This document shows, one piece after another, positions 750-17,084 of a stretch of 64,000 nucleotides of DNA; positions within the stretch are counted from its first letter, which is position 1, and every line of letters begins with the position of its first letter. The DNA lies in the NCBI GenBank assembly GCA_017403085.1, contig JAFQOQ010000009.1:2096-66095 (forward strand). Reading direction: 5' to 3'. A program made the translations under genes and the position numbers. The notes under the pieces are model-generated. The model was not told the origin of the DNA. It worked only from the letters and a program-made list of their open reading frames with translations, and made no database searches. Source of the DNA: Alphaproteobacteria bacterium. Lineage in GTDB: Bacteria; Pseudomonadota; Alphaproteobacteria; Rs-D84.

Positions 750-751
750 GG

Positions 752-774
752 AACGCCCCACGGGGCGTTTTTTA
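752..774 (+). terminator. Intrinsic terminator
   Basis: AACGCCCC-A-CGGGGCGTT hairpin followed by TTTTTT, directly after the stop at 749. Confidence 0.7.
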
Positions 775-805
775 ATGGCATAACATGGTGGGTAGTGTCA
801 GGAAA

Positions 806-1085
806 ATAAAAAGGCATAATAAGACTGGATTGCCACGCTGCGCTCGCAATGACAAGAGTTATTAAGTGCCGAGGGTGTGGGTGGGGGTGCGTAAGTAAAA
901 AGCATAATAAGACTGGATTGCCACGGCTTCGCCTCGCAATGACAAAAGGGACGAAGAGCCGAGGGTGTTGGTGGTGGATTTCTAGGCCCCTATCCCTGCC
1001 TGCGCAGGGATGACAAAGTATTTTTGCGGGGCGCTTAAACCATGCGATGACAAAGGGGTATGAAGGGGCGAGGGATTGGATGCAG
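806..1085. repeat. Tandem ~89-bp repeats plus short palindromic units, each ending in ATGACAA
   Basis: GCATAATAAGACTGGATTGCCACG..CGCAATGACAA..GCCGAGGGTGT.GGTGG occurs at 813 and again at 902 (period 89 bp). A degenerate third copy lies at about 1040-1085. Perfect palindrome TCCCTGC-CTGC-GCAGGGA at 993-1010. ATGACAA at 849, 939, 1010 and 1047. Confidence 0.75.
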
Positions 1086-1097
1086 GTATCTGGCAAG

Positions 1098-1122
1098 AAA
1101 AAACGCCCCGTGGGGCGTTTTT
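1098..1122 (-). terminator. Bidirectional intrinsic terminator serving the 1136..4300 gene
   Basis: AAAAAACGCCCCGTGGGGCGTTTTT: GC hairpin flanked by an A-run and a T-run, 14 nt beyond the stop. Confidence 0.65.
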
Positions 1123-1135
1123 ATTTACATTTGGA

Positions 1136-4100
1136 TTATTCCATGCTGGTCGATACCACTTCACCATAGGTAGCCACTTCTTCGCCACCGATATAGCAGT
1201 GAATCTTGGACCCGACGTTATCCATGAAATCTTGGATGGCGTCGCGCTTTGCCTTATCAACCGCAGAATCCATGATGCTGTCTGTGACAGTGTATGCCAA
1301 TGCACCACCCGCCACCGCAGTCACCGCCGCGCCGATACCCGCCGCTGCGCCCTTGCTTAGGCCCTTTTTCTTTTCTTCTGTTTCTGAAGATTCCGTAGCG
1401 ATTTCGCATTTTGCCTTTATCGCGTTCAACACGCTAAGGACTTCGCCCTTTTTAGTATCGTATGCAAAATCTCCTAAACATTTAGTTCCTTCAGCAAGGT
1501 CGGTAGAACCACTACCGCAACGCCAGTTGTTGCCTTTTTTCGTTGCTGTTGTTGTTGTTGTTGCAACGTCTGCTGGCCAGGCCGTTACACCCTTTACACC
1601 CATGCTTTCCAGTCTTTTTACAGCGCCAGTTGCATATGTATGGGCCTGGTTCGCTTCGTATGCATTAAGTTGAGTAATTGCAACGTTTGTATATTCTGTA
1701 CATTGTTTTTTCAAATCTGCAAATGATGTCGTCTTTGCTTTCTTTTTGCCGGTCAGGCCGCCCAAAACAGAACCGTCTTGGATACCCGCACCCAGGAACG
1801 CACCACCAACACCGCCACCCACTGCGCCAAGCGCCGTCATCCAGCCACGGATTTTTGGTTGCGATGCCTCTTTATCAGCGGCCGCTTTGTCGCCGGCTGC
1901 GTTTGCCATTTCTTCCAATTTGTCGCTGGGGATCCATGAACCGCATGTGAATGCATCACCCGCAGCAAAGTAACCAACAGACCAATCTGCACCATTAAAG
2001 ATTGCATCTTGGATTGCCTTGTCTTCGGACTGTAATGTCACGCGAACACGGCAGAAAGAACCATATAATTCATTGCTGGCAACAAACTGTTTTGGTGTCA
2101 GACCCGCCACAGAATAATTTGCTGGAACCTTGTTGGATTTCAGTTTAACCCACATAAATGTTGAACCCAAATCATTCTTGCCAACCAGACCACCGTCATT
2201 TGACGACAGACACAGATTCTGCTGTTTGGTCAATTTTGCGTTATATTTCGCCTGGGCCTCGATTTCCAAATCGTAAATCAGGTCTTTGAATAATGTGCTG
2301 GCCGCCTGGGATTCAACATAGGTTGTGTATGCAATCATCACAGGTGTGTCAAACACTGCGCCAGTGCTATCCACTGTATAGCATGGGCCCTGGTCCCCGG
2401 TCTTGGACGAACACAGATTGTTGCCGTTTTCATCAACTGCCTGGACCTGGTCGGTGGTGGCCGCCATCTGGGATGTAGAACCCGCATCAATCCAGCCCGA
2501 ACGGACGTTGTTGGATGCGCCCCAACTGGACTGTTCAGATTTATTCTGCATTGCCAGTTTATTGCGTTCGATTGCCAAGTGTTCTTCGCAAACGTTCGCA
2601 TTTTTAACCGTATCCATACACAGACCCAAGACAATTGTGTAATCTAATACGCCGCCGACCTTGTTCATAGATTTATCAAATGCGGTGTCGCCACTGTTGG
2701 TCAAAGATGAATAGATATCCGTACGATTGCGATAGCAATTCTGGAAATCAGCACCACACAAAGAGCGTACGCAACTGGTTGCGACAGATTGACACTGTTT
2801 CTTCATCTGGGCAATCGCAGCGTCACTGTAATTTGTTGCCAATGCCGCGTTCAATGACGCAACAACGCCAATTGGGTCAGATTCTGCGCCGCCATCATAT
2901 TCGGGGAACAAGATATCAAATGCGTCTGCTTGATTATATGTGTATGCGAACGCGCCCGTTGCACTTGGGTTCTGGGCCGCATATTTACAATTTGCATCGG
3001 TATTAACAATTGCCGCGCATCCTGTTTTGATTTCTTCGCGCGTGTAATCATTATTGATAGATTTGTCTGTGGCACCAAACACCTGGGAATAACATGCCGC
3101 GCCAGAGCCAGACCCGCAAACACGCATTGCGCACGATTTGATTGTGGATACACATTTTTCTTTGGCCTTGGTATCAAATTTATTTACCAAATCTGCAATC
3201 TTGGATTTCATGCCAGAATTCATACGTGATGAATAAGCCTCGCTATAAACTTCGTCCTTGTTGTCTTCGTCCAACAATTGTGACGATGTTGGCATTTTGC
3301 CTTCGCCCAAGAATGTGGCATAGCAGTACTTATTGCCGCCAATTGTATCCAAACAAGAGCCCTTGATATAGGACGCAATTGCAGAACTGCTGATTGTAGA
3401 AATAGCATCTGCACCTTCGGCAACCGCAGTACCGTCGTTAATTGCATCAACGGTTGCAGCCAAACTTTCGGTTGCGTTTTCATAACATCTGTATGGGTTT
3501 GCCGCACATGCGCCCAAGATACAGTTATCAACAACCTTGTAACAGGTCGAAACCGCATTTACCGCCGCCAACGACGCCCCTTCGGCAATCATTTCGCCAA
3601 CACGACTGGTCGCGGTTGGGGATACAGATGCACTGGTGCTGGCGGTGCCGAACAATTCGACCAAGCCGTCACTTTGACATTTGGCCAACGTGGATTCACA
3701 TGCAATACGCTGTTTCTTGAATTCAGAATTTGTTGTACATAATTCAAAATCTGCGCCACAAACACTTTCTTTGCGCAGGCATGAAGAATATCTTTTCACA
3801 CAGGTCGCCGTGTCATATTTATTGGAAATCGCCGCACCTGTAATCATTTGACCCAAGACACTGCCGTCGGTGGGGTATGTGTAATCTGTCACTTCGCCAT
3901 AGGAGTTCTGGGTGGCAACATTTGCCAGGGACGCAGTATTTGATGTGCCAAACAGACTGTTTATACCAGATGACGAACACTGGGCCAACGTTGTTAAACA
4001 CTGGGGCATTTTACCATGAAACAAAACCTTGGTCGTGCATTCTTCGAAATTTTCACCACATGTTTCAGCCGTCTTCATACAGGACGTATATGCATCAATA

Positions 4101-4300
4101 CATTCCATATCGCTTAACAGTGGCGTAGTAGTCGTCGATGACGAAGAACCACCGGTCACACCGTTAATGTACGCCGTCATAGTTGGCATGCGACGCACAG
4201 ATGCATTAGCCATAACACTGGGGCGCGCAGTTGCCGCAAACGCCGCAGGTATTACGCTGAATACAGCCAATAAACTAATTGTGTTTTTCAGAAAAGACAT
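1136..4300 (-). CDS. Giant secreted or membrane-anchored cysteine-module protein, function unknown
   Basis: 1054-aa ORF with signal peptide MSFLKNTISLLAVFSVIPAAFA. C-x6-C-x6-C-x6-C-x12-C-x6-C modules at aa 67-108 and 167-208 (exactly 100 aa apart), each ending LFGT(S/A)xT(A/S)S. Three further C-x6-C-x4-C-x6/7-C modules. Two Gly-zipper hydrophobic segments near the C-terminus. Ser/Thr runs. Confidence 0.8.
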   Translation of the reverse strand: MSFLKNTISLLAVFSVIPAAFAATARPSVMANASVRRMPTMTAYINGVTGGSSSSTTTTPLLSDMECIDAYTSCMKTAETCGENFEECTTKVLFHGKMPQCLTTLAQCSSSGINSLFGTSNTASLANVATQNSYGEVTDYTYPTDGSVLGQMITGAAISNKYDTATCVKRYSSCLRKESVCGADFELCTTNSEFKKQRIACESTLAKCQSDGLVELFGTASTSASVSPTATSRVGEMIAEGASLAAVNAVSTCYKVVDNCILGACAANPYRCYENATESLAATVDAINDGTAVAEGADAISTISSSAIASYIKGSCLDTIGGNKYCYATFLGEGKMPTSSQLLDEDNKDEVYSEAYSSRMNSGMKSKIADLVNKFDTKAKEKCVSTIKSCAMRVCGSGSGAACYSQVFGATDKSINNDYTREEIKTGCAAIVNTDANCKYAAQNPSATGAFAYTYNQADAFDILFPEYDGGAESDPIGVVASLNAALATNYSDAAIAQMKKQCQSVATSCVRSLCGADFQNCYRNRTDIYSSLTNSGDTAFDKSMNKVGGVLDYTIVLGLCMDTVKNANVCEEHLAIERNKLAMQNKSEQSSWGASNNVRSGWIDAGSTSQMAATTDQVQAVDENGNNLCSSKTGDQGPCYTVDSTGAVFDTPVMIAYTTYVESQAASTLFKDLIYDLEIEAQAKYNAKLTKQQNLCLSSNDGGLVGKNDLGSTFMWVKLKSNKVPANYSVAGLTPKQFVASNELYGSFCRVRVTLQSEDKAIQDAIFNGADWSVGYFAAGDAFTCGSWIPSDKLEEMANAAGDKAAADKEASQPKIRGWMTALGAVGGGVGGAFLGAGIQDGSVLGGLTGKKKAKTTSFADLKKQCTEYTNVAITQLNAYEANQAHTYATGAVKRLESMGVKGVTAWPADVATTTTTATKKGNNWRCGSGSTDLAEGTKCLGDFAYDTKKGEVLSVLNAIKAKCEIATESSETEEKKKGLSKGAAAGIGAAVTAVAGGALAYTVTDSIMDSAVDKAKRDAIQDFMDNVGSKIHCYIGGEEVATYGEVVSTSME

Positions 4301-4373
4301 CCCCTGACTCCATATTTTATTATTTTATTCTATCATAAAAGTCATGGGATGAAAAGAGAAAAATCGGCTTTTA

Positions 4374-5330
4374 TTAGATATTTTCAAGGATAAATTTCAA
4401 TTCCTGCATATCATGGGGCATGCGCGATTTAAAATGCATCATTTGACCCGTTATAGGGTGTTTTAGTTCTAAAAATTCTGCATGGAGCATTTGCCCATTG
4501 TGTTCATGCAAAAATTCCAGTAAATCTGGGTCCTTGACCGTGCCAAAACGGGTTGTGCCACGGCCATATAGTGGGTCACACAGCACTGGAAAACCATGCG
4601 CAGACAAATGAACGCGTATCTGATGAGTGCGCCCCGTCAATAAATTACACCGAAATTGAGATACGCCCGCCCGTGGCCACGCATTTAGCACGGACACCTC
4701 GGTCGCGGCATGTTTGCCACCGGTTTTTACCATGGTCATTTTCTGTCTGTTGCGTGAAGAACGTGCGATATTACCCGTAATGTCCGCACTTTCCCAATTT
4801 GGGACACCCCATACGAATGTTGTATATCGACGAACCAAATCGTGATCGGAAAAAGTTTTGACCAGCGCACGAAATGCCGCATCAGATTTCGCAAAAATCA
4901 TAACCCCACTGGTATCCTTGTCCAGTCGATGTACCACCCCGGGACGCGTCGCGCCACCCAACGCAGACAAGTGCGTGTGCGCCAAGATATTCTGGACCAA
5001 GGTGCCGGTTTTGTTGCCTGCCGACGGATACATAACAACGCCACGCGGCTTGTTTATAACAATGATATCGTCATCTTCGAATAATATATCCAATTCAAAA
5101 TCTGTCGAGATATTATCTGCGGCAACGTCGGTTTTGGGCGCCGGGATTTCAACAGCAAGAGTATCGCCCAATCGAATTTTATCCGACGGTTTTACCGAAA
5201 CACCATTTTTAGTCACATTGAATTTTTGAATTTCACTGCGCGAAAATTCTGGCATCTGGGATGTCAAAAATTTATCAACGCGCCCCAAGGCGACATCTTC
5301 TGAAACAGTAAATTCGCGAATTTGTGCCAT
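4374..5330 (-). CDS. rluD: RluA-family 23S rRNA pseudouridine synthase (RluD-like, with S4 domain)
   Basis: HRLDKDTSGVMIFAK catalytic motif and an N-terminal S4-like region. Start moved to the ATG at 5330 (MAQIREF), 7 nt after the upstream gene's stop; the track start 5387 would overlap that gene. Confidence 0.85.
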   Translation of the reverse strand: MAQIREFTVSEDVALGRVDKFLTSQMPEFSRSEIQKFNVTKNGVSVKPSDKIRLGDTLAVEIPAPKTDVAADNISTDFELDILFEDDDIIVINKPRGVVMYPSAGNKTGTLVQNILAHTHLSALGGATRPGVVHRLDKDTSGVMIFAKSDAAFRALVKTFSDHDLVRRYTTFVWGVPNWESADITGNIARSSRNRQKMTMVKTGGKHAATEVSVLNAWPRAGVSQFRCNLLTGRTHQIRVHLSAHGFPVLCDPLYGRGTTRFGTVKDPDLLEFLHEHNGQMLHAEFLELKHPITGQMMHFKSRMPHDMQELKFILENI

Positions 5331-5337
5331 AATAAAC

Positions 5338-5796
5338 CTATCTATAATCACGCCAATCTGGGCCAACGCTGCATTCCGATAAATCAATTATCATTTCGCG
5401 GCCACGATTTTTAACAGGACACGTTAAAATACCCGTTGTTGTCGCCTGGTCTGCATCGCGCGTCGCGTTGCGATACGCAAATTTTAATTCGGTTGGTTCG
5501 GCCACACATGCAATATGCAAATGTTCATGATTCTGTCCATCTGGACCAATCCAAACACGAACACCATAGGCCAGACCATAACACGGAAAACCGTCCAGAT
5601 AATACAATTCCAGACCACGGCCGACCAGTTTTCTATCCTCGACAAAAGTGCCATTATATTCGTTCAGGGTCAGACCCGTCACAGCCTGCCAATCGGTGCT
5701 GGTTGAAAAAATACTGACCCGTGGTTGGGGGGCATCCGCCGCATGTGCAACAAATGTGCAAAAAACCGCAATTGATGCCAGAATATATTTTTTCAT
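5338..5796 (-). CDS. Secreted hypothetical protein
   Basis: Signal peptide MKKYILASIAVFCTFVAHA. No family recognised. Its start overlaps the stop of the zinc-ribbon gene. Confidence 0.6.
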   Translation of the reverse strand: MKKYILASIAVFCTFVAHAADAPQPRVSIFSTSTDWQAVTGLTLNEYNGTFVEDRKLVGRGLELYYLDGFPCYGLAYGVRVWIGPDGQNHEHLHIACVAEPTELKFAYRNATRDADQATTTGILTCPVKNRGREMIIDLSECSVGPDWRDYR

Positions 5797-6317
5797 TATT
5801 TTTTCCCTGTGTTTTGTCCGTCTGCCAAAATGGCGCTGATTTTTTTCACACTGACTGGCGGGATGTTTAAAGTATGCGTAAATTCTGCCACCGCACCCGC
5901 GTCCAGTAATGTCACCGTCGGTAAAAACTTTTGACGACCAACCACATTGTTTTTTTCGTCCTGTAAAACAATGTACAAATCGGGCATTGCGTAAATCGCA
6001 TCAGACTGATTCACGATTTTCCCAGACACGACCAAATGTGTCGCACCATTATCATCGGTCGCAGTTTTGTATTCCGTAATACTGGCAACCAGTGGTTTAT
6101 CCTTGTCCGGGTCGGCATGATATGTAAGCAAAACAACCGCGGTAAATATAATCGCCGCAAATAACGCACATAATGATGCAAAAAATTTTAACCAAACATT
6201 TCGACGTGGCGGTAATGCAACCGTCCATTCATGCCCGCAAACCGCGCATTTCACCGGCGTCGATGGTGCGCCGTCAATATTATATTCAGTCTTGCAAAAG
6301 TCACATTTTATTTTCAT
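5796..6317 (-). CDS. MJ0042-type zinc-ribbon membrane protein (DUF3426-like C-terminus)
   Basis: N-terminal CxxC-x15-CxxC (CDFC..CAVC), one TM helix, beta-rich C-terminal domain. Lies 20 nt downstream of the pilin-like cluster. Confidence 0.7.
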   Translation of the reverse strand: MKIKCDFCKTEYNIDGAPSTPVKCAVCGHEWTVALPPRRNVWLKFFASLCALFAAIIFTAVVLLTYHADPDKDKPLVASITEYKTATDDNGATHLVVSGKIVNQSDAIYAMPDLYIVLQDEKNNVVGRQKFLPTVTLLDAGAVAEFTHTLNIPPVSVKKISAILADGQNTGKK

Positions 6318-6337
6318 GTTATTACTTATACCACAAA

Positions 6338-7657
6338 TTATTCTAAATTCAACAGGCGATATTTACTGCGCACACGAGATTGTATTTCTGTGATTGCATT
6401 CATAAAATCCGCAACCGTTGCGTTTTCGTTTGCTGCGACCGCACCAAACAATTGCGTTGCATATGTCGTGTTGTCACGTTCGTAATAAACCGCCAATTCT
6501 GCCATGCGATTTAATTCTGCAAAAGATGCGTCAGATAAATGTGCCGTCTTGGAATCTACATCCCAAAAGAAATTTGGGTTTGTCGAATCTTCAATGCGTT
6601 CAGATACAATTAAACGGGGCGTAATCGACCCAGTATAACCAACCGTTACAAACATTGCATTTATACGCCCAGCAGTCATATCCAGCGACTGATTAATCTT
6701 CATCAACGCCAAATCGTCGTCTGCACTGATGGATAAACCACCAAGCGTCATATTCGATACCCATAAATTTTCTGCCGCGACAGATGAAAATTTGCCCAGG
6801 TCCGCCAACACAAAAGAACCAGAAACCTCCATATTCTTGGCATCTGATGTCATACTGCCTGCAACAGTTGTGGTTTTGGCATCAAAACGCTTATCCAAGG
6901 TTGTACGTGTGTTAAATATCAGGTTTTGCGTTACGATTTCTGGTGTGATTAACTTTTCGTTAAATTCCGCATAAGCCGCATCAAAGAACGCGACATTTGT
7001 GATATCGTGACCGCCTAAATTTAAGGGCGATAACATTTTGGCATCAGACGCATTTATAGATGGGACACGCCATAAATACAAGGCGTTGTCTTGGCTGATT
7101 GTCGTTGTTTCTATAATTCCGTCTGTTGTATCCAGCCCCAAATCCAATGTATCTGCATGCCACGCACCAAACGTGCCATATGCGTGGGTTCCTTCGACAA
7201 ACCCCATACTGTCGCCACCCATAGATACGATTTCGCGCGTGCGCAATGGCGTTATATCATCTGTTGCACGTACAATTACGCCCTGCAATGTTGCCTGGCC
7301 ATTAACGTCATCTGATTTTAAGACACGCAATTGATATTTGTCGCCAACATTTTCAATTATACCAAGTGGCAATCCATAATCTGTCAGATCCGACAATTCC
7401 ACACGCGTGATATTTTTGCCAACCGTTTTTAATAACTTTTCACGATGCGCAACGATGTATCGTTCCAGCGCAACCTGCACTTCGGTCATTTGATTTGTAA
7501 TCGCAATATTTTCTGCGCGTACGACGGCATTTTGTTGATATCTGAACGCAAACGGTATTATGACCGCCGCCAGCGCAATGCTAAGCAGTAATTCAACCAA
7601 CATATTTCCATGCTGTGAATTTTTAGAAAATAAAAAACATCTGTTATTTGTCTTCAT
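6338..7657 (-). CDS. Giant pilin-like protein P3 (PilV/shufflon-N-like, inferred)
   Basis: Prepilin-type N-terminus ..SQHG|NMLVELLLSIALAAVIIPF. YGLPLGI box. YLWRVPS..KMLSPLNLGGHDITN box. Start set at the ATG at 7657, which gives an ATGA overlap with the P2 stop. Confidence 0.7.
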   Translation of the reverse strand: MKTNNRCFLFSKNSQHGNMLVELLLSIALAAVIIPFAFRYQQNAVVRAENIAITNQMTEVQVALERYIVAHREKLLKTVGKNITRVELSDLTDYGLPLGIIENVGDKYQLRVLKSDDVNGQATLQGVIVRATDDITPLRTREIVSMGGDSMGFVEGTHAYGTFGAWHADTLDLGLDTTDGIIETTTISQDNALYLWRVPSINASDAKMLSPLNLGGHDITNVAFFDAAYAEFNEKLITPEIVTQNLIFNTRTTLDKRFDAKTTTVAGSMTSDAKNMEVSGSFVLADLGKFSSVAAENLWVSNMTLGGLSISADDDLALMKINQSLDMTAGRINAMFVTVGYTGSITPRLIVSERIEDSTNPNFFWDVDSKTAHLSDASFAELNRMAELAVYYERDNTTYATQLFGAVAANENATVADFMNAITEIQSRVRSKYRLLNLE

Positions 7658-8859
7658 CGCGATATCACTGATACAACCGTTGTTTTCCAACCACTGTTCA
7701 TCAGTGGTTTAAATTCGTTTTTGCTGACCGGTGTCGGCAGTTTGGCGCGCGCCAATGTAAAATTCGAAAATTGAGGAGGTTTGGTCGATGGAAATATCCA
7801 CGAACCAATCTTTAACGGCGACGTGGTAGACATCAATAATTCGCCGGAAATTGTTAAACCAAAATTATCATAAAAAATCATTTCTTCGGCAGTCACATAT
7901 GGCGTCATTACAGAATTTACAGTAATGCCTGTAAATCCACTGACGGTTCTGGACGAACTAGATTTCATTATTAAATCATTTGCAACATTTACGCTGCCTG
8001 TGATTTGCGCACGATCGGTGATGATGCGGCCGCTGGTTGTATATCCACGCCCATTCATATCCATCGCATAAATATTTCTGAACCCGGAAACATCACCAGA
8101 TACACGCACCGCACCCAATGTCACATCGTCACTTTCGATTGTCGCACCAGATGAAAAATATACCGTGTTCGCCGCAATGGAATCAGATTCAACAAATGTC
8201 GCGTTTGCGTTTTTTGTTTGGGTCGATTTTGCAGTCAATGTCGCAACATTATAAACGTTATAAGAATTCATATCTAAATCGCGGCCCATAACATTTAAAT
8301 TATCTTCGCCAGATGTTCCACGATGCAGGTATTTAGATGTATCTTCGCCGGCAACATCGCGCGATATTCGGTATATCAAATTACCCGCATTAAATCCAGG
8401 CGCAGACACCGCCCACATATCACCAAATGCAACACCATCGTCACCGACGACCGCTGCATCCGAACCAATATGTTTGGCAATTTGCGATGTGCGCAAATTT
8501 GTATCCTGTAAATCAAATGCCAGATATACATCAGTTATCGCCGCACCATTGACAGTATATTTATCGATAAATCCCGCCGTTGGAAAATCTGAAATCGTCG
8601 CCAATTCTTCATCAGCCAATTTGATTTGCGCGGCGTCTGGCCACTTGTCCTGATTCATACGAACAAAATTTAGCACATTATCACGCGTTTCTGTAATTCT
8701 ATGCGCAACTGCAATATCATGTATTGTTTGATTCGTACGGGCAATCTGGCTATATACAAATGGGGTTGCGGTCGTAACAATCGCCATCGCCAGCAATACT
8801 TCCAACATGCTGGCACCACAGGATTGATTGTTAAAGATTCTAGACGTTATTTTATCCAC
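7654..8859 (-). CDS. Giant pilin-like protein P2 (PilV/shufflon-N-like, inferred)
   Basis: GTG start overlapping the P1 stop (GTGGATAA). ..NQSCG|ASMLEVLLAMAIVTTATPF. YLHRGTSGEDNLNVMGRDLDMNSYNVYN box. Beta-strand-rich C-terminal half. Confidence 0.7.
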   Translation of the reverse strand: MDKITSRIFNNQSCGASMLEVLLAMAIVTTATPFVYSQIARTNQTIHDIAVAHRITETRDNVLNFVRMNQDKWPDAAQIKLADEELATISDFPTAGFIDKYTVNGAAITDVYLAFDLQDTNLRTSQIAKHIGSDAAVVGDDGVAFGDMWAVSAPGFNAGNLIYRISRDVAGEDTSKYLHRGTSGEDNLNVMGRDLDMNSYNVYNVATLTAKSTQTKNANATFVESDSIAANTVYFSSGATIESDDVTLGAVRVSGDVSGFRNIYAMDMNGRGYTTSGRIITDRAQITGSVNVANDLIMKSSSSRTVSGFTGITVNSVMTPYVTAEEMIFYDNFGLTISGELLMSTTSPLKIGSWIFPSTKPPQFSNFTLARAKLPTPVSKNEFKPLMNSGWKTTVVSVISR

Positions 8860-10210
8860 AGTTTCCGTTCCCCGACATTAGACATTGCTTGATATCAATT
8901 CTTTTTTCCAATCTTTGCCAATATACATATTGACAGATTATATACTGAGACAATGACGCCGCATTATACGAGCCTTCTAAATCAGCAATCACAGATTTAC
9001 AATCTATGGTTTTTCCGTCATCTGATTTTGGGTCACTTAAAATTTCAAACGCAGAATTGTTGATTCCAGACACCAAAACATCTGGCAACAATGATGTTCC
9101 CGCCGGTCTGATATCCAATATCACCGCGCCCGTATCACCATCATTAAGCGCAGTTGATGTTTGATCACGCATAGTAATATTTGACGCGTACAAATAAGCA
9201 ACATTTATACCGCTGTTTGAACTGTATTCAAGTGTATCTGCATCTATATACACATCCTGGCCGCGCGTTGCGTTCAAATGCGACGTGATATCCAAGCGTT
9301 CAACACTAAAATTTATCTTGTCTGCCACCAGATTTCCACGAACATTCCACTGACCCGGTCCCGTGAAAGATGTACGCCCAGCAGTCATTGTAAAATCATA
9401 GACCGATACATCTTGGGCCGTGAAATTCCCACCATCGCCAAACTTTGATACGGTTTTTGCATTTACAGAATCTGCGTATAGCACACCGCGCGACAAAGAC
9501 AGTGCAGATGCACCATCATGACTTTGAAATACTGCCTTGGCCGTGGTAATTAAATCAATTGTATTGCGAATTTTACGACCAGATTCAACACCAGATATGG
9601 AAAGCGTATTAAACTGGCCCGAATCAAATACACCTTTTGCAGCAAAAACATTACCACCGTTATCCAACACAAAACCACCCATATCTAAATTTGTTAAGAA
9701 ACCGCTGTTGTCCAGGTCCGGTTCGTTACGTCTGACGATGTCTGAATAAATATCCTGTAATTCTATTCCAATGCGCACATTTTGTTCGTCGGTCACACTG
9801 GCACTAAAACCAATACGCCGCGCCAACTCTGCAATTTCTAGTTCAGATAAATCACCACCACTTAGTTCTAAATACGCCGTAAGTGACATTGGGGTTCTGT
9901 GAATTATTAACGCAATATCCTGGCCCAATGCGGTATGCGGAACAAAACCCAACGGCAGACCGTATGGTTCCAATGTGTCACCAAACGCATTGCCAACAAT
10001 CCTGGTTGTGTCGTACGCCAGATTGTTAATATTTTCACGCACAAATATTTTTGCCGCTGTTTGGGCGGTTTCGACTTGTTTTGTTGTACTGAACATTCGC
10101 GCATCAGTATTGCGCGCCGCCATACGTGTCGCTAAAAACGGCACAAACGCAAAAACCAGAGTCAATGCCAATAATGCCTGTAATAAAAAATTCCCGCGCT
10201 GTTGGTGCAA
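8852..10210 (-). CDS. Giant pilin-like protein P1 (PilV/shufflon-N-like, inferred)
   Basis: TTG start 9 nt after AGGAGG. MHQQRG|NFLLQALLALTLVFAFVPF. YGLPLGF box. IVRRNEPDLDNSGFLTNLDMGGFVLDN box. Cys-rich C-terminal tail. Confidence 0.7.
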   Translation of the reverse strand: MHQQRGNFLLQALLALTLVFAFVPFLATRMAARNTDARMFSTTKQVETAQTAAKIFVRENINNLAYDTTRIVGNAFGDTLEPYGLPLGFVPHTALGQDIALIIHRTPMSLTAYLELSGGDLSELEIAELARRIGFSASVTDEQNVRIGIELQDIYSDIVRRNEPDLDNSGFLTNLDMGGFVLDNGGNVFAAKGVFDSGQFNTLSISGVESGRKIRNTIDLITTAKAVFQSHDGASALSLSRGVLYADSVNAKTVSKFGDGGNFTAQDVSVYDFTMTAGRTSFTGPGQWNVRGNLVADKINFSVERLDITSHLNATRGQDVYIDADTLEYSSNSGINVAYLYASNITMRDQTSTALNDGDTGAVILDIRPAGTSLLPDVLVSGINNSAFEILSDPKSDDGKTIDCKSVIADLEGSYNAASLSQYIICQYVYWQRLEKRIDIKQCLMSGNGNCG

Positions 10211-10356
10211 ATGTTAGCCCCTCCTACAGGAATCAGGATAGCAATTGAAAAAAAATATTGCAATCAGTTTTAAGATGCTTTAATATCCAAATTGTTAGTA
10301 AGCGATAACAGTAAGAATATTGTTATTTGGGTTAATTTCCTGTAAAAAGAAATACA

Positions 10357-10659
10357 ATGCAAAATAAAAAAAATCAATCCTCTGTCGGACAGATGATTCA
10401 ACGTTGCCATAAATGGCGTCAAAAAAGAAAACAATTCATCGACCAGGCACGTCAGACATCTGATGAAATTGAACGCGAACGCTTGTTGCAGGCCGCAGAA
10501 CATTATGGTCGCATCGTAAATGCAGAACAGGTGAAAATAGATTCTGTGCGAGATCCAAAGGAAAAAGCCGTGGCAGAAGTTGAAAACGCGCCAGAGACAA
10601 CGGAAAACACCGACGAAGAAGATACAGGGTTTCCAGACTTTATCACAAATTTGAAGTAG
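10357..10659 (+). CDS. DUF4167-like small basic/acidic protein
   Basis: RERLLQAAEHYGRIV resembles the AEHY motif of alphaproteobacterial DUF4167 proteins (from memory). Preferred over the antisense ORF 10270..10674. Confidence 0.5.
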   Translation: MQNKKNQSSVGQMIQRCHKWRQKRKQFIDQARQTSDEIERERLLQAAEHYGRIVNAEQVKIDSVRDPKEKAVAEVENAPETTENTDEEDTGFPDFITNLK

Positions 10660-10741
10660 TAAATAACGCGTCAATCGACGCGTTTTATTTGTTGAAATTT
10701 ATACGTGTTTTGCTATGCTGAGAACAAAGGAAGTTTTTAGC

Positions 10742-12304
10742 ATGGATACGAATTATACTGTTTTAGCCCGCAAATATCGCAGCCAAGATTTTAAAAGCCT
10801 TATCGGGCAAGACGTTTTGGTAAAAACATTAACAACTGCAATTAACACATCACGTATTGCGCACGCATATATTTTTACCGGTATTCGCGGGACAGGAAAA
10901 ACCAGTACAGCACGTATTTTGGCCAAGGCCTTGAACTGTCTGTCGTCAGACAAGGCGACCGCATCACCATGTGGGACGTGCGAAAATTGTCGCGCAATTG
11001 CCGCAGGCCAGCATATTGACGTTATGGAAATTGACGCGGCGTCACATACGGGCGTTGATAATATGCGCGATATTCTTGATGCGGCGCAATACCGCCCAAC
11101 AAATGGCCGGTACAAAGTATATATTATCGACGAAGTTCATATGTTATCAACCAGCGCATTTAATGCGTTGTTAAAAACATTGGAAGAACCACCTGCACAT
11201 GTTATTTTCATATTGGCAACAACAGAAATTCGCAAGGTTCCAGTGACAATCTTGTCACGTTGCCAGCGATTTGATTTGGTTCGCGTTCCGGTCGATACAC
11301 TGAAAAAACATTTCGCATGGATTGCGGACCAGGAACAGGTTCAATTATCTGATGCAGCAAACGAATTATTGGCACGTGCGGCAGACGGTTCTGTTCGCGA
11401 TGGATTATCTTTGCTGGACCAGGCAATTGCGCAAACCGGTGGCAATGTTGATGAAGCCGCCGTTCTGGATATGCTTAAACGCGCAGACCGTGGTGTCGTT
11501 GTAGATTTTATGAAGACATTACTGTCTGGTGACGTGGCGGCGGCATTGGACAAGGCAGATACCATATATAACAATGGCGCAGATTTGTCTATGTTGCTGA
11601 CCGACATGATGGAATGGACGCATTGGGCAACACGCATGCACCCAAGTTTGCATGCGGGCGATGTCCAAAATTCACCATACACGGCCGATCAACGGGATCA
11701 GATTTATGATATTATTTCTAAAGTTTCACTGAACGTACTGTCACGCATATGGCAAGTCATGGTCGCATCTGTTTCTGAAATGCAGGCATCCAGCAATCAA
11801 AAACAATGTTTCGATATGCTGGTTGTGCGTCTGATGCATATTGCTGATATGCCATCTGTGCCAGAAATATTGAAGCAGCAGGAATCTGCAAATCGCGCAC
11901 AGTCTGTAAAGAATATCTTGGCCGACCGTATGGCCCAGCCCGCAGCCGAGGCGACACCCATAGCTACAACGTGCGTTATTACATCATCGGGTGATTTGGC
12001 ATGTGCGCTGCAAACAAATAAAGAAATACTGTTGTATTCTTATTACAGCAGCAATATCGAAGTCGCAGAATTTTCAGATGGAAAGATTAAGTACTTTGAC
12101 CGTAAGGGCGACCCAGATTTTGCACATAAATTGTCTGTATGGCTGATGGATAAAACGGGACACGCATGGACACTGGAACGTGTGACGGAATCTGTTAATG
12201 CACACACAGTCAGCGAACAAAAACAAGAAGAACTAGAAGCAGATCCACTGGTTGCCAGTGCGATGAGCCTGTTTGAAAATGCAGAAATAGTTGGGGTGAA
12301 ATAA
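10742..12304 (+). CDS. dnaX: DNA polymerase III subunit gamma/tau
   Basis: GIRGTGKTS Walker A, CGTCENC zinc module, YIIDEVHMLS box. ATG at 10742 is preceded by AAGGAA; an alternative ATG lies at 10715. Confidence 0.93.
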   Translation: MDTNYTVLARKYRSQDFKSLIGQDVLVKTLTTAINTSRIAHAYIFTGIRGTGKTSTARILAKALNCLSSDKATASPCGTCENCRAIAAGQHIDVMEIDAASHTGVDNMRDILDAAQYRPTNGRYKVYIIDEVHMLSTSAFNALLKTLEEPPAHVIFILATTEIRKVPVTILSRCQRFDLVRVPVDTLKKHFAWIADQEQVQLSDAANELLARAADGSVRDGLSLLDQAIAQTGGNVDEAAVLDMLKRADRGVVVDFMKTLLSGDVAAALDKADTIYNNGADLSMLLTDMMEWTHWATRMHPSLHAGDVQNSPYTADQRDQIYDIISKVSLNVLSRIWQVMVASVSEMQASSNQKQCFDMLVVRLMHIADMPSVPEILKQQESANRAQSVKNILADRMAQPAAEATPIATTCVITSSGDLACALQTNKEILLYSYYSSNIEVAEFSDGKIKYFDRKGDPDFAHKLSVWLMDKTGHAWTLERVTESVNAHTVSEQKQEELEADPLVASAMSLFENAEIVGVK

Positions 12305-12762
12305 TGAAGACAGAATCGGGACGTTCTTTAATCGAAGTTATTGGGGTATTGGCAATTGCGGGCATCATGACCGCGGGCGCCATTGGTGGATATAACATTA
12401 TTCGAAAAAGCCAAACACGCACAATTGCAACCACACAAATAAAACAAATTGCCCAAGATGCAAAAATGCTGATGGAAATGCGCGGCTCTTATGAAGGGAT
12501 ATCTATTGATTACCTTATCAAAGCTGGCGCATTAAATTCAAACGTGGCACCAATTGGTGGGGATGCATGGTCCGTTGTGTCCAGTGTAGATGGCGCGTCG
12601 TTCTCGATAAATCTGGTCGATTTAACCCAAAGCGAATGTGACTATTTTACTGCGACAAAGCCAGAGTGGGCAGCCGCAGTTTTAGTTAATGGGTATGAGG
12701 CAAATAATGCGGACGCATGCTTTGAGTCTGCAACAAATCAGGTATCGTTTATCATAGAATAA
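12304..12762 (+). CDS. Type IV pilin-like protein
   Basis: MKTESG|RSLIEVIGVLAIAGIMTAGAIGGY (Gly -1, Glu +5, hydrophobic helix). C-terminal C-x26-C pair. ATG overlaps the dnaX stop (TAATG). Confidence 0.7.
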   Translation: MKTESGRSLIEVIGVLAIAGIMTAGAIGGYNIIRKSQTRTIATTQIKQIAQDAKMLMEMRGSYEGISIDYLIKAGALNSNVAPIGGDAWSVVSSVDGASFSINLVDLTQSECDYFTATKPEWAAAVLVNGYEANNADACFESATNQVSFIIE

Positions 12763-13452
12763 ATGGAACAAGTAAAAATTTGTTTTATAGGGTTCTTGTT
12801 ATGCGCGCTGGGGGCGTGTATGCCATATCACAGTCCAAATCGTGCAACATGGCACACGTATTTAAATGGTGCCAGTTTTACAGACATGACGGAAATATCA
12901 CGTGTTGCAAAGCGACCTGTGTATCTGGGGGCGGGTGGCACATTGGTGACAGCAACCGCAGGCACAGATGCGCCAGCCACCATGGCGTATGGCGACAAGA
13001 TTTCAAACGACAATGCAATCGCAACAAATTATATGGCGAATTTAGAATTCGCGCTGTATGACGCCCTGCGCAAGCCAGGAATATCGGTTCAGCGCGCCGG
13101 CACAGATGTCGTTGTAATATTGGTGCGCGATGCGGTTATGGAATTAAATGTCGCAGACATATCTGAAACTGGTGACGACACACTGAAAACAATTGCAAAA
13201 ATATTAAATAAGTATGACGCAACCTTTATAGAAATCGCTGGATACACCGACGCAATGCGGGACGCAAATGCGGCGCACGCACTATCTATGGACATGGCAC
13301 AACGCGTTGCAGTTCATATGGCCCAGCATGATATTAATACGGCACGTATGTTCATTGTTGGACGTGGGGCCGCGCGCCCAATCGCCGCCCAAGATGACAT
13401 TGGACGTCTGACCAACCGTCGGATAGAATTACGTATTGCGCCGGCACGATAA
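12763..13452 (+). CDS. OmpA-domain lipoprotein
   Basis: Lipobox LGAC. C-terminal OmpA/MotB motif GYTD..NxxLSxxRA..NRRIELRI. ATG directly abuts the pilin stop. Confidence 0.8.
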   Translation: MEQVKICFIGFLLCALGACMPYHSPNRATWHTYLNGASFTDMTEISRVAKRPVYLGAGGTLVTATAGTDAPATMAYGDKISNDNAIATNYMANLEFALYDALRKPGISVQRAGTDVVVILVRDAVMELNVADISETGDDTLKTIAKILNKYDATFIEIAGYTDAMRDANAAHALSMDMAQRVAVHMAQHDINTARMFIVGRGAARPIAAQDDIGRLTNRRIELRIAPAR

Positions 13453-13518
13453 CTTTCTCTTTTACTTTCTGTTTTTTCTTGCTATAGTCCAATTACTAAA
13501 CAAAAAAAGGACGGAAAA

Positions 13519-14184
13519 ATGGTAAAAAAATCAACAGAAACACCAGTTGTAAAAAACTATAAAAAGACCGGCATTATTGCGGCCATTGTTATCGCAGTTG
13601 CGGCGTTGGGCGTTTGGGCGGTATCTGCACTGAATTCTAATGGCGGCGCATCAGTTGATGAAGCAATGGAAGTTGTTTCAACAGATGCAGTTAATGCCGC
13701 AGATATGCGTATCGCGGTTATTCATATGGATGTGATTCAAAATGATGCCAAGGCTTTGCAAGATTTGCGCAAACAGAAAGAATCGTATGAATCAAAACTG
13801 CGCGATGAATTGACACGCGAACAGAAAGATTTAGAAGCAGAAAAAGCAGAAATCGAAAAATCTCAGGATGTGTTGTCGCGTGATGCGCTGCAACGTCGTG
13901 TTGTCGATTATCAAAACAAGGTCGCAAAATTACAACGTGATTTGACAGAACGCGCACAGAGCATTGAAATGTCTTATCAAAAGGCATTAAATGAAATTCA
14001 GGCAAAACATCTGGACCCAATTATCGAAGGCATTATCGACAAGAAAGATTTGTCATTGGTAATCGATGGCCGCTTTGCACGCACGGGCGCAAATGCAGAA
14101 GGTCTGAATATCACAAACGAAGTTGTTAAGGCGTTGGATAAGAAAGTATCAAGCGCAAAAATGGAAAAGCCAAAAGGCTTTTAA
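13519..14184 (+). CDS. OmpH/Skp-like periplasmic chaperone
   Basis: N-terminal anchor or signal, long coiled-coil K/E/Q-rich core typical of the OmpH family. AAGGA SD. Confidence 0.6.
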   Translation: MVKKSTETPVVKNYKKTGIIAAIVIAVAALGVWAVSALNSNGGASVDEAMEVVSTDAVNAADMRIAVIHMDVIQNDAKALQDLRKQKESYESKLRDELTREQKDLEAEKAEIEKSQDVLSRDALQRRVVDYQNKVAKLQRDLTERAQSIEMSYQKALNEIQAKHLDPIIEGIIDKKDLSLVIDGRFARTGANAEGLNITNEVVKALDKKVSSAKMEKPKGF

Positions 14185-14202
14185 GCAAATTAAATAAAAA
14201 TA

Positions 14203-14228
14203 AACCGCCCCAAATGGGGCGGTTTTTA
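14203..14228. terminator. Bidirectional intrinsic terminator
   Basis: ACCGCCCC-AAAT-GGGGCGGT followed by TTTTT, between convergent genes. Confidence 0.75.
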
Positions 14229-14525
14229 TTATGGTAGCGGGACACCAGACGTGGCGTCACCCATAACCTGGTCGATTATGGCGTCGGCCTTGCGCTTGGC
14301 ATCCAGATAGGCCGCCATGACCACACGTTCGACCGCAGATGCGCCCTGGGCGACGACATCTGGACTGATGGATATTTTAACCATATCATATTTGCCGGTC
14401 ATATCGACAATGCATGCGCCACTGTCGGCAATGCCCTTGACAGTTGTTTTTGCCAACTGTTCCTGTGCGGCAGCGACTTTGTTTTGTAATTCGGCCGCCT
14501 GTGCCATCAATGTATTCATATCCAT
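14229..14525 (-). CDS. ybaB: YbaB/EbfC nucleoid-associated protein
   Basis: 98 aa. MAQAAELQNKV..Q..L....V.G....G.V.V...G pattern typical of the YbaB family. Confidence 0.85.
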   Translation of the reverse strand: MDMNTLMAQAAELQNKVAAAQEQLAKTTVKGIADSGACIVDMTGKYDMVKISISPDVVAQGASAVERVVMAAYLDAKRKADAIIDQVMGDATSGVPLP

Positions 14526-14543
14526 TGCTGTACCCCTGCCCTT

Positions 14544-14909
14544 TTATTTTTGTTTTTTATTTTCAATATGCAACAGTTGAAATGCACCAACAGGCACACC
14601 CATTATTTTTGCCGACAGTGGCGTCAATTGCATGCGAGGCAAAATTTCTTCGTTCGCATAGCGGGTTGCTTGGTCGTGTGATTCAAACTGCTTGTCAGAA
14701 GATACAACTGGCATGACACGCCGCGCACCAGATGGCGCAATATCCAGTTTCGTCATACAAAAGTAATAATTCCCAGTTCTGGAATTTCGGGCAATTTGAG
14801 GAAAAAAGTTTTCTTGCATCCATTCACGTAATACGGGAATATCACTGACATCCCACGATAAGTGGGATGCCCATTCTTTGTCCGTCCATTTTAATTGTTC
14901 TGGGGTCAT
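14544..14909 (-). CDS. Hypothetical protein
   Basis: 121-aa ORF starting 3 nt after the pnp stop. No motif recognised. Confidence 0.5.
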   Translation of the reverse strand: MTPEQLKWTDKEWASHLSWDVSDIPVLREWMQENFFPQIARNSRTGNYYFCMTKLDIAPSGARRVMPVVSSDKQFESHDQATRYANEEILPRMQLTPLSAKIMGVPVGAFQLLHIENKKQK

Positions 14910-14912
14910 GTA

Positions 14913-17084
14913 TTACTCCTTTACAATTTCTGCGCCTGTTTTTTGATCAATGCCGACCATGGACATGCGGGTTTTACCGCGCTTGTCTGCGCCCAAATAA
15001 CGGACATAAACTGTGTCGCCTTCTTTGATTTTTGTATCTTCGATTTTCGCAATGCGTTCGCCTGTGATTTCAGAAATATGAACCATGGCTTCGAACCCAT
15101 TTAAAATCTTTACAAATAAACCAAAATCTTTCATCCCAGATACAGTGCCTTTGTAAATTTGGCCAACTTCTGGTTCGGCAACAATATCTTTGATGCGCGC
15201 AATTGCGGCGTCTGCATCTTCTTTGCTGACCGCCATGATTTTGATAGAACCGTCATCTGCCAAATCAATCTGGGTATTTGTTTCGCGGGTCAAGGCCTGG
15301 ATAACACTGCCACCCTTGCCGATAACTTCGCGAACCTTGTCTGGATTGATTTTCATAGAATACGCCTGGGGTGCATACTCTGACACATTTGCGCGTGGCT
15401 TTTTAATCGCCTTTTCAATCTTGCCCAAGATGTGCATACGGCCATCTTTTGCCTGGGCCAATGCGCGTTCCATGATTTCAAATGTGATAGATGTGATTTT
15501 AATATCCATCTGCAGGGCAGTGACACCTTGGTCTGTACCAGTCACCTTGAAATCCATATCGCCCAGGTGGTCTTCGTCACCCAAAATGTCTGTCAGAATT
15601 GCGTAATCATCGCCTTCTTTAATCAGACCCATTGCGATACCTGCAACCGGGCGTTTCATTGGAACGCCACCGTCCATCATTGCCAATGTTGCGCCACATG
15701 TTGTCGCCATTGATGATGAACCGTTTGATTCCAAGATATCTGAAACGATACGAATTACATAATCAAATTCGCTGCGACTTGGCACCATTGGATGCACCGC
15801 GCGCCACGCCAAATTACCATGACCGATTTCACGGCGACCCGGGGATTTTAATCCTTTGCATTCGCCAACAGAATAGCCTGGGAAATTATAGTTCAAGATA
15901 AAGTCGCGTTCTTCGGCACCATCCAAGGATTCAATTGGCAGTGCGTCTTTGCCACCGCCCAATGTCAAGGATACCAGCGCCTGGGTTTCACCACGTGTAA
16001 ATAATGCAGAACCGTGTGCGCGTGGCAGAACGCCTAATTCAATTTCAATTGGACGCACGGTCTTGTTATCACGGCCGTCAATACGTGGTTTGCCCGCCAA
16101 AATGTTGCCGCGCATGATGCGTGCAGTTATATTTTCAATAACTTCATCTGCCCATGATTCCAAGGTAGATGTCGCACGAACAGATTCTGGGAATAATTCT
16201 GGGATGCGTGCCTTGGCATCTGCATGAATGGACGCCAACGTTTCCAGACGTGTCAATTTTTCTTTGATTTGCAGTGCAGATTCAATCGCAGGCGCAAAAG
16301 ATTCAAAGTTTTCTTCCATTGCGATTTGTTCAGCAGTCTTTTCTGGTGTTGCCCAGCGTTCTTTGCCGGCTTGGGCCGCCAATTCGTTGATTGCCGCAAT
16401 AACTGCCTGTTGTGCATCAAAACCAAATTTTACCGCGCCCAAAACAGTTGCTTCGTCCAGTTCGCCAATTTCTGATTCAACCATCAATACGCCGTCTTTG
16501 GTTGCAGCAACAACCAAATCCATTTCAGATTCTTCAACCGCCTTTTTTGATGGATTTAAAACATACTGGCCATCCATGTATCCAACACGCGCCGCACCAA
16601 TTGGGCCCTGAAATGGAACACCGCTTAATGCCAATGCCGCAGATGACGCAATCATCGCCAAGATGTCAGGCTGGTTCTTTTTATCGTATGAAAATACCTG
16701 GGCAATAATTTGGACCTTGTTCTTGAAAGTTTCTGGGAACAATGGACGAATAGGACGGTCAATCAAACGTGCAGTCAATGTTTCTGCGGTTGATGCCTTG
16801 CCTTCGCGACGATCGCGAGAACCAGGAATACGGCCAGCAGACGCAAACTTTTCTTGGTAATCAACCGTCAAAGGAAAGAAATCCTGACCTTCGACCGCAG
16901 ATTTTTCCGCACAAACCGTTGCCAAAACCATTGTGCCACCCATTGTTGCCAATACAGAACCATTTGCCTGTTTCGCCATACGACCAGTTTCCAGGCGCAG
17001 TGTTTCATCACCGTATGGAATTTCAACAGCAATCGGATTGTTCAGATGAGTTTTTTCATCCTTGTTAAATAAACCAAATAACAT
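14913..17084 (-). CDS. pnp: Polynucleotide phosphorylase
   Basis: 723 aa with two RNase PH-like halves, then KH and S1 domains at the C-terminus (GQIYKGTVSGMKDFGLFV). Confidence 0.97.
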   Translation of the reverse strand: MLFGLFNKDEKTHLNNPIAVEIPYGDETLRLETGRMAKQANGSVLATMGGTMVLATVCAEKSAVEGQDFFPLTVDYQEKFASAGRIPGSRDRREGKASTAETLTARLIDRPIRPLFPETFKNKVQIIAQVFSYDKKNQPDILAMIASSAALALSGVPFQGPIGAARVGYMDGQYVLNPSKKAVEESEMDLVVAATKDGVLMVESEIGELDEATVLGAVKFGFDAQQAVIAAINELAAQAGKERWATPEKTAEQIAMEENFESFAPAIESALQIKEKLTRLETLASIHADAKARIPELFPESVRATSTLESWADEVIENITARIMRGNILAGKPRIDGRDNKTVRPIEIELGVLPRAHGSALFTRGETQALVSLTLGGGKDALPIESLDGAEERDFILNYNFPGYSVGECKGLKSPGRREIGHGNLAWRAVHPMVPSRSEFDYVIRIVSDILESNGSSSMATTCGATLAMMDGGVPMKRPVAGIAMGLIKEGDDYAILTDILGDEDHLGDMDFKVTGTDQGVTALQMDIKITSITFEIMERALAQAKDGRMHILGKIEKAIKKPRANVSEYAPQAYSMKINPDKVREVIGKGGSVIQALTRETNTQIDLADDGSIKIMAVSKEDADAAIARIKDIVAEPEVGQIYKGTVSGMKDFGLFVKILNGFEAMVHISEITGERIAKIEDTKIKEGDTVYVRYLGADKRGKTRMSMVGIDQKTGAEIVKE

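Follow-up and report, generated by a model that had tools for sequence, protein, structure and literature searches.

The closest described counterparts of the pilin gene reported here are the type IVb pilins TcpA, BfpA, CofA and PilS, and the closest described assembly system is the R64/IncI thin pilus (PilL-V; the "R64 variant" of the type IVb pili, Tfpb), for which the family PF06864 is a marker (PMC3984277). Type IVb pilins have traditionally been set apart by length, with a leader of ~13 to 30 amino acids (aa) and a mature protein of ~180 to 200 aa; according to a review, such length rules no longer separate the type IVa and type IVb classes (PMC4471445). We analysed a 64,000-nucleotide stretch of DNA (the window) from an uncultured gut alphaproteobacterium with a genome of ~1 Mb, available as a metagenome-assembled genome (MAG; G000) that is 92% complete with 3.96% contamination; related records name the lineage Candidatus Enterousia, order Rs-D84. 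In the window, a prepilin gene of 152 aa (12304-12762, + strand), recognised from its open reading frame (ORF), its homologues, a structural model with Foldseek matches and a family profile, lies directly behind dnaX. We consider it likely that this gene encodes the prepilin of a type IVb pilus resembling the R64 thin pilus and that it reached its position behind dnaX by rearrangement.

The protein begins MKTESG|RSLIEVIGVLAIAGIMTAGAIGGY, with predicted cleavage at G6|R7, a Glu at +5 and a hydrophobic alpha1N helix; read from the start of the ORF into the mature part, the letters are MKTESG|RSLIEVIGVLAIAGIM. The leader codons MKTESG (12304-12321, +) end on an invariant Gly at -1, and the next codon gives an invariant Arg at +1. 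Cys112 and Cys139 form a C-x26-C pair that flanks the D-region. A first-pass annotation of the same DNA, made from its letters, had listed the 6-aa leader, Gly -1, Arg +1, Glu +5 and the cysteine pair, and all of them were found in place and conserved in relatives. A word-indexed search returned 334 clusters of homologues, the best 120 of which are nearly all 152 to 153 aa long, with identities of 59 to 96%. In the alignment of these 120, G6, R7 and S8 are invariant where the residue is present, E11, C112 and C139 are invariant, and L9 and I10 are nearly so. The gene was found in all 41 relatives searched, most of which have a second, weaker copy. Variation along the protein is lowest in alpha1N (mean entropy, 0.72 bits) and highest in the D-region (1.38 bits). 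A chance ORF was ruled out because the sequence is conserved in its homologues, across the clusters, the 41 relatives and the 120-sequence alignment. The ORF is neither absent from relatives nor poorly conserved in them, the motif and the cysteines being kept in the 120 homologues, and by this measure it is a real, selected gene whose conservation goes far beyond chance.

Next, we looked into the class of pilin to which the protein belongs. An AlphaFold2 (AF2) model built on 48 homologues had a predicted local distance difference test score (pLDDT) of 79.5, rising to near or above 90 over most of its globular region, and places a 53-residue helix (residues 8 to 60) on a four-stranded sheet (90-93, 100-107, 125-128 and 145-151). 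In a Foldseek search of the PDB, the matches at an E value of ≤0.05 were type IVb pilins only: TcpA in the TCP filament (TM score relative to the query, TMq, 0.59 to 0.72), CofA and PilS, at sequence identities of 12 to 20%. A single-sequence search of the PDB with the pilin gave nothing significant, and it was the family profile alone, made from 40 diverse members (alignment A2), that gave matches: TcpA (E = 1.2e-12), BfpA (E = 5.4e-11), CofA (E = 5e-6) and PilS (E = 1e-3). In the profile alignments, TcpA is covered as far as the first Cys and BfpA across the globular domain, both cysteines included; C112 and C139 align with the cysteines of BfpA and may be joined by a disulfide that bounds the D-region. 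Because the Foldseek and family-profile matches agree, we regard the head domain as homologous to that of type IVb pilins, and according to the model the protein is a genuine type IV pilin with a type IVb fold. The earlier call of a type IV pilin is thereby upheld and narrowed: hidden Markov model searches stayed below the Pfam cut-offs, but the family profile and the AF2/Foldseek comparison support type IVb, and structure prediction of the pilin alone yielded a pilin fold. A major pseudopilin of the type II secretion system (T2SS), GspG, was rejected, since the NCBIfam pseudopilin models GspH and ComGE score far under their cut-offs, no GspG/ComGC-type match passes, and no pseudopilin is among the structural matches listed. 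A tblastn search of 72,556 plasmids with the pilin gave one match at chance level (E = 0.3); therefore, no close plasmid PilS relative was found.

The pilin shares with TcpA, BfpA, CofA and PilS the long N-terminal helix, Gly -1 and Glu +5, a type IVb-like globular fold by Foldseek, a Cys pair bounding the C-terminal D-region and a first mature residue other than Phe. It differs from them in its leader, which is 6 aa here whereas theirs are classically much longer, in its mature length (146 aa versus roughly 160 to 200 aa) and in the identity of the first mature residue, here an invariant Arg. With type IVa pilins and T2SS pseudopilins such as PilA and GspG it has in common the short leader, the mature length of ~145 aa and the G|x-[ST]-L-I-E spacing; unlike them, it has no Phe at +1, its host genome carries no methyltransferase domain and its fold matches at an E value of ≤0.05 are all type IVb; PilM/N/O machinery of the PF04350 type was not seen either, none having been examined. 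Leader and size in this family are thus of type IVa character and fold and machinery of type IVb, a mixture that matters for the classification of pilins.

The Arg at +1 was followed through an exhaustive search of 1.84 billion representatives, in which 301 relatives were found at an E value of ≤1e-3. A search for G-x4-E located the processing site in 141 of these, and 134 of the 141 read G|R-[ST]-x-x-E. The pattern GRS[ML][IV]E[MIT][LVI]GV occurs at at least 537 loci in species-representative genomes. Nearly all Arg+1 loci are labelled as alphaproteobacterial MAGs from the gut, rumen or termites, under names such as Ca. Enterousia, "Rickettsiales bacterium" and Acetobacter sp. CAG:977; a few are labelled Bacteroides, Muribaculaceae or Ruminococcus and are probably mis-binned contigs. 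As far as the alignments reach, a large, previously unnamed pilin family, here called GRS, has Arg at +1 as its hallmark. The first-pass annotation had called the residue unusual, and the Arg itself stands; as an oddity of a single gene it does not, since 134 of the 141 motif-bearing representatives share it. It is not carried by the three large prepilin-like neighbours, whose N-termini are G|NMLVE, G|ASMLE and G|NFLLQ, with Asn, Ala and Asn in its place. The sole A24 prepilin peptidase of the genome, on contig C20, is very short (about 157 aa). Neither in this peptidase nor elsewhere in the 92%-complete genome did we find the A24_N_bact domain, the presumed N-methyltransferase (PMC4471445). 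Because the peptidase is without the domain linked to N-methylation, the mature Arg1 is probably unmethylated.

We speculate that the side chain of Arg1 partners Glu5. A bolder proposal, offered tentatively and as possible rather than probable, is that the guanidinium of Arg1, in place of an N-methylated amine, neutralises Glu5 where it is buried, both in the membrane and in the core of the filament, so that these proteins would form a distinct class of pilins with assembly rules of its own, and that in Enterousia their dose would be tied to the expression of dnaX through a fixed, translationally coupled operon. In most public records the pilin is named "hypothetical protein." The Arg+1 family falls under the current Pfam and NCBIfam pilin cut-offs, and a dedicated model would improve the annotation of gut alphaproteobacteria. 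As a side observation, one genome of a sister family (G025, family f2) has 18 pilin-like matches, including ORFs of 500 to 540 aa, suggesting that Arg+1-type pilins have multiplied in that lineage in particular.

We then turned to the assembly machinery in the rest of the genome. Outside the window, positions 109687-114357 of contig C5 (G000:C5:109687-114357) hold genes for PilO2 (PAP_PilO, PF06864; 36.4 bits versus a cut-off of 26.7), a PilP-family protein (TIGR03021; 38.3 bits versus 34.65), a 546-aa T2SSE ATPase and a T2SSF platform protein. Contig C18 carries a lipoprotein secretin that scores highest with the PilN family TIGR02520, at 234 bits and below the cut-off of 287.65, and adjoining it is a gene for a TcpQ-domain protein (66.6 bits). 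Pilus genes are scattered over at least four loci, on contigs C5 (two places 95 kb apart), C11, C18 and C20. In terms of gene content, the genome carries a dispersed R64-type assembly set, and the pilin system is not an orphan. No PilT-type retraction ATPase was seen; the other T2SSE-family hit is one isolated ATPase of 320 aa (G000:C22:47305-48267), a candidate VirB11-like protein by its size and a partial match. No type IV secretion system genes were seen near that ATPase. A ComEC-family gene is present (G000:C2:4066-4884; 667-aa frame), which makes DNA uptake a possible use of the pilus, adhesion via the PilV-like proteins being another. The secretin C-terminus and amiC each recur as a near-identical second copy at a contig end (G000:C4:2157-2687 and G000:C10:19075-20118), probably because of strain heterogeneity or MAG contamination.

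In a distant relative (L138, MAG RGIG3920, JAFTLF010000121.1), a single same-strand cluster contains the ATPase and platform genes and, shortly downstream, two Arg+1 pilins, an arrangement that ties the Arg+1 family to R64-type machinery. The cluster, at positions 1-7650 of that locus, runs through a PilO-like end, a 462-aa ORF, the ATPase, the platform, a 179-aa ORF, the two Arg+1 pilins and a second ATPase of 325 aa. Like the R64 thin pilus, the system in our genome has a PilN-family lipoprotein secretin, a PF06864 PilO2, PilP, an ATPase, a platform, a small pilin with large PilV-like pilins and a TcpQ/PilL-like protein, and no PilT-type ATPase was found. It differs in that its genes are chromosomal and lie at four or more loci, whereas those of R64 form one pil operon on a mobile element; in that no shufflon was seen, there being two small pilins and three fixed PilV-like genes; and in its very short peptidase (about 157 aa), and no plasmid pil match rose beyond chance level.

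Read together with the functions of these families, the genes suggest the following course. The pilin would enter the inner membrane via its hydrophobic alpha1N helix, and the short A24 peptidase would cleave it after Gly6. A PilQ-like ATPase, a PilR-like platform and the PilO2/PilP complex (G000:C5:109.7-114.4 kb) would polymerise it, and the filament would leave the cell through the PilN-family lipoprotein secretin and its TcpQ-domain partner (contig C18). The three large prepilin-like genes (401 to 452 aa; 6338-10210, - strand), which are divergent from dnaX, probably encode PilV-like minor pilins and would probably serve as tip or initiator subunits. An ancestral rearrangement would have put pilin-ompA-skp directly behind dnaX and displaced ybaB, and the near-zero spacers would have been kept since.

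The junctions of this block are tight. The dnaX gene, for the clamp-loader tau/gamma subunit (10715-12304, +; Pfam DNA_pol3_delta2, E = 9e-45, plus gamma3 and DUF3646), ends in a TAA that overlaps the pilin ATG (TAATG at 12302-12306), and a Shine-Dalgarno-like GGGGTGA lies before this overlap within the dnaX 3' end (12293-12306, +, including the overlap). The pilin stop in turn abuts the ATG of an OmpA-domain lipoprotein gene (TAAATG at 12760-12765; gene at 12763-13452, +; 229 aa, lipobox LGAC). The last gene of the block encodes a Skp/OmpH-family periplasmic chaperone (13519-14184, +; Pfam OmpH, E = 1e-15), and it converges on ybaB/ebfC (14229-14525, -; PF02575, E = 8.7e-18), which is inverted relative to dnaX, across a bidirectional GC-rich hairpin terminator assigned to neither strand (14202-14225). 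The ybaB gene starts 1.9 kb past the dnaX stop on the opposite strand, and recR is on a separate contig, C2. The overlap and the abutment, the OmpA-domain lipoprotein directly after the pilin and the displacement of ybaB to the other strand had each been read in the first-pass annotation, and each proved correct, as did its view that the slot behind dnaX normally belongs to ybaB, which fills it in sister families.

The comparison of dnaX neighbourhoods, as that annotation had proposed, showed dnaX-pilin-ompA to be fixed across the family and absent from sister families. The order dnaX-pilin-ompA(-skp) was found in all seven loci first compared, and dnaX-pilin-ompA in 28 of the 28 sampled genus members, in three other genera of the family and in about 20 named MAGs; skp follows ompA in nearly all family loci. 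Between the dnaX stop and the pilin ATG the spacing is -1 nucleotide (nt) in 13 loci and 1 to 27 nt elsewhere, always with a purine-rich Shine-Dalgarno (SD) sequence, and the gap between pilin and ompA is mostly -11 to +3 nt where the lipobox start could be placed. In one locus (L074) pnp-ybaB stands upstream of dnaX, and the pilin block is intact despite this rearrangement of its flank. The three PilV-like genes lie divergently upstream of dnaX-pilin in most family loci sampled. In the sister families f2, f3 and f4, ybaB is directly after dnaX on the same strand and the orthologous pilin is elsewhere. In f5 and f6 (loci L015, L017 and L019), a gene of ~400 aa directly follows the orthologous pilin; in L015 this gene encodes AMIN and Amidase_3 domains (AmiC-like), and its counterparts in L017 and L019 resemble it in sequence. 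The amiC gene of the window's genome is away from the pilin (C20:109789-110982). Because sister families keep dnaX-ybaB with the pilin placed elsewhere, the link of dnaX and pilin is, on this comparison, derived and restricted to one family, a rearrangement with no sign of a new mechanism. The idea that the pilin is "wired to" a replication gene holds as conserved adjacency but goes no further, the arrangement being derived and found in one family only.

Several points weigh against a type IVb, R64-like pilus with this gene as its main pilin. The leader of 6 aa and the mature length of 146 aa are type IVa-like sizes and lie outside the traditional type IVb ranges. On the pilin, Pfam N_methyl (PF07963) scores 16.4 bits, below its gathering score of 21.2, where the Arg+1 N-terminus departs from the model, and Pfam PilS (PF08805) scores 18.8 bits, below its cut-off of 22. 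The machinery is scattered over its several loci, so its co-function is inferred, and the steps set out above come from the families involved. Major pilins normally have to be expressed at far higher levels than DnaX, and signs of a promoter embedded in the dnaX 3' end did not appear. Third-position entropy in the last 20 codons of dnaX is 1.19 bits, equal to the gene-wide level of 0.93 to 1.32 bits, so no conserved nucleotide element is visible, and a promoter-like TTGCCA-17-GAAAAT at 12252-12280 was set aside on finding that it overlies codons that differ in relatives (FENA versus FADA). Finally, there is a second small pilin with an older, order-wide linkage to uvrC, which could be the major subunit instead.

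That paralogue (G000:C11:12743-13207, outside the window; 154 aa, MRQESG|RSMIEM) lies between a divergent uvrC and an rluC-like gene, and the order uvrC-pilin-rluC-asmA is conserved order-wide, in dozens of named MAGs. Since a second Arg+1 pilin exists, the dnaX-linked gene is one of two candidates for the major subunit. The first-pass annotation had seen in the dnaX-linked gene the natural major-subunit partner of the three giant genes upstream; a plausible partner it is, being adjacent to them in most sampled species, but the major role is contested by the pilin at uvrC. Across the same genome pairs, dnaX-linked pilins have 49 to 59% identity to that of the window, versus 68 to 73% for the paralogue. 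Because the dnaX-linked pilin changes faster than the paralogue and its D-region is so variable, we lean slightly toward it as the exposed major subunit.

How the gene is expressed bears on the same question. No terminator-like site was predicted on the + strand from the dnaX start to the hairpin at 14202-14225, and an Rfam scan of 9500-15500 at an E value of ≤0.1 gave no match, so no known RNA element lies at the junctions. Because the spacers are near zero, no terminator intervenes and no embedded-promoter signal is visible, co-transcription is the simplest reading: the pilin most likely, we infer, shares the dnaX transcript and has an SD sequence of its own, in the dnaX 3' end, for its translation. 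On this footing one could suppose that the gene encodes a low-abundance (minor or priming) pilin, that the uvrC-linked paralogue is the major subunit and that weakly expressed dnaX sets a low dose, which we regard as unlikely. A spacer of at most 27 nt leaves no room for a promoter of its own, the synonymous sites give no embedded-promoter signal, the uvrC position of the paralogue is order-wide and hence the older fixed locus, and type IVb systems commonly have a few pilins of distinct roles. The paralogue, however, is equally squeezed between housekeeping genes, the best structural and profile matches of the dnaX-linked pilin are major pilins, and this pilin diverges faster than the paralogue, with a D-region that is its most variable part, as is usual for exposed major subunits.

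The lipoprotein gene downstream bears on a second alternative. Its product matches Pfam OmpA (PF00691; 48 bits versus a cut-off of 27.2) and scores 95.7 bits with NCBIfam YiaD, below the cut-off of 175. In alignment A3, C19 (the lipobox Cys), D163, D177, M178, A179 and R181 are invariant. Its motif reads GYTD...LSMDMAQR, with the invariant Met178 where the meso-diaminopimelate (meso-DAP)-binding Arg of LSxxRA is expected, and the canonical Asp...Arg pair is not found. The AF2 model matches PA0833 (TM score relative to the target, TMt, 0.87), YiaD (TMt 0.82), YfiB and MotB domains. A pilus-specific domain was considered and rejected, the model containing an OmpA-like domain and a poorly defined helical linker only. 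Compared with lipoproteins of the YiaD/PA0833/Pal type, the protein has the same lipobox and C-terminal OmpA-like fold but differs in the Met that replaces the Arg of LSxxRA, giving the invariant motif D-M-A-x-R, and in a degenerate glycine zipper. The other OmpA lipoprotein of the window (31254-31895, -) has a true glycine zipper and GHTD...LSKSRA and is, by its motifs, a probable canonical YiaD-like, housekeeping counterpart. Sister families have the divergent type too, at sites with no pilin beside it, and outside the family the linkage of OmpA and pilin was absent in the sister families compared; because the divergent OmpA occurs away from pilins, a role in the pilus is possible but unsupported. 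In sequence and fold, the gene product is a diverged YiaD/PA0833-like envelope lipoprotein, and its link to the pilus stays conjectural.

It seems to us quite improbable that dnaX-pilin-ompA-skp is a functional operon through which envelope or pilus output becomes coupled to replication or to growth rate, the OmpA protein serving as a dedicated, peptidoglycan-side pilus anchor. Such coupling would agree with the retention of the block in every sampled family member even where the flanks are rearranged, with the near-zero spacers, with an OmpA gene that is not the housekeeping YiaD (the canonical copy being at 31254-31895) and has an altered binding motif, and with the presence of another peptidoglycan-directed gene, the AMIN-domain amidase, after the orthologous pilin of sister families. 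It agrees poorly with the divergent OmpA lipoproteins of sister families that are not beside any pilin, with an arrangement confined to one family and with an OmpA model that has no pilus-specific domain, and in reduced genomes genes with no relation to one another are often brought together in compact units. We doubt strongly that the pilin builds a short, periplasm-spanning pseudopilus (endopilus) for DNA uptake or secretion with no extended adhesive pilus: the short leader, the small subunit of pseudopilin-like size, ComEC in the genome, the want of a PilT-type retraction ATPase among the genes found and a strongly reduced metabolism that suggests scavenging (PMC12306168) would suit it, but no GspG/ComGC-type match passes any cut-off, the proteins matched by fold and profile come from extended type IVb pili, the three PilV-like proteins of 400 to 450 aa are better suited to be tip adhesins and the secretin is of the PilN type IVb family.

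Upstream of dnaX, the window contains a 100-aa ORF with a weak DUF4167 match (10357-10659, +; 22 bits versus a cut-off of 25), followed by a terminator-like hairpin at 10665-10684, just 5' of dnaX. Given this hairpin, dnaX probably has a promoter of its own within the 30 nt that precede its start.

One genomic description of Enterousia/Rs-D84 presents these bacteria as non-flagellated and credits type IV pili to another lineage only (PMC12306168), and the literature searched for pili in Rs-D84 or RF32 held nothing relevant. The kind of system described here is itself known; what is new is the Arg at +1, the short leader, the type IVb fold and the dispersed R64-like system in gut alphaproteobacteria with reduced genomes. 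Genome compaction has produced a link to dnaX that is fixed but restricted to this lineage, and the fixed dnaX-pilin junction amounts to a natural experiment in operon re-formation during genome reduction. For the organisms themselves, a complete but scattered type IVb pilus is a candidate tool for attachment to partners or host, or for DNA uptake, in transporter-poor gut bacteria with genomes of ~1 Mb.

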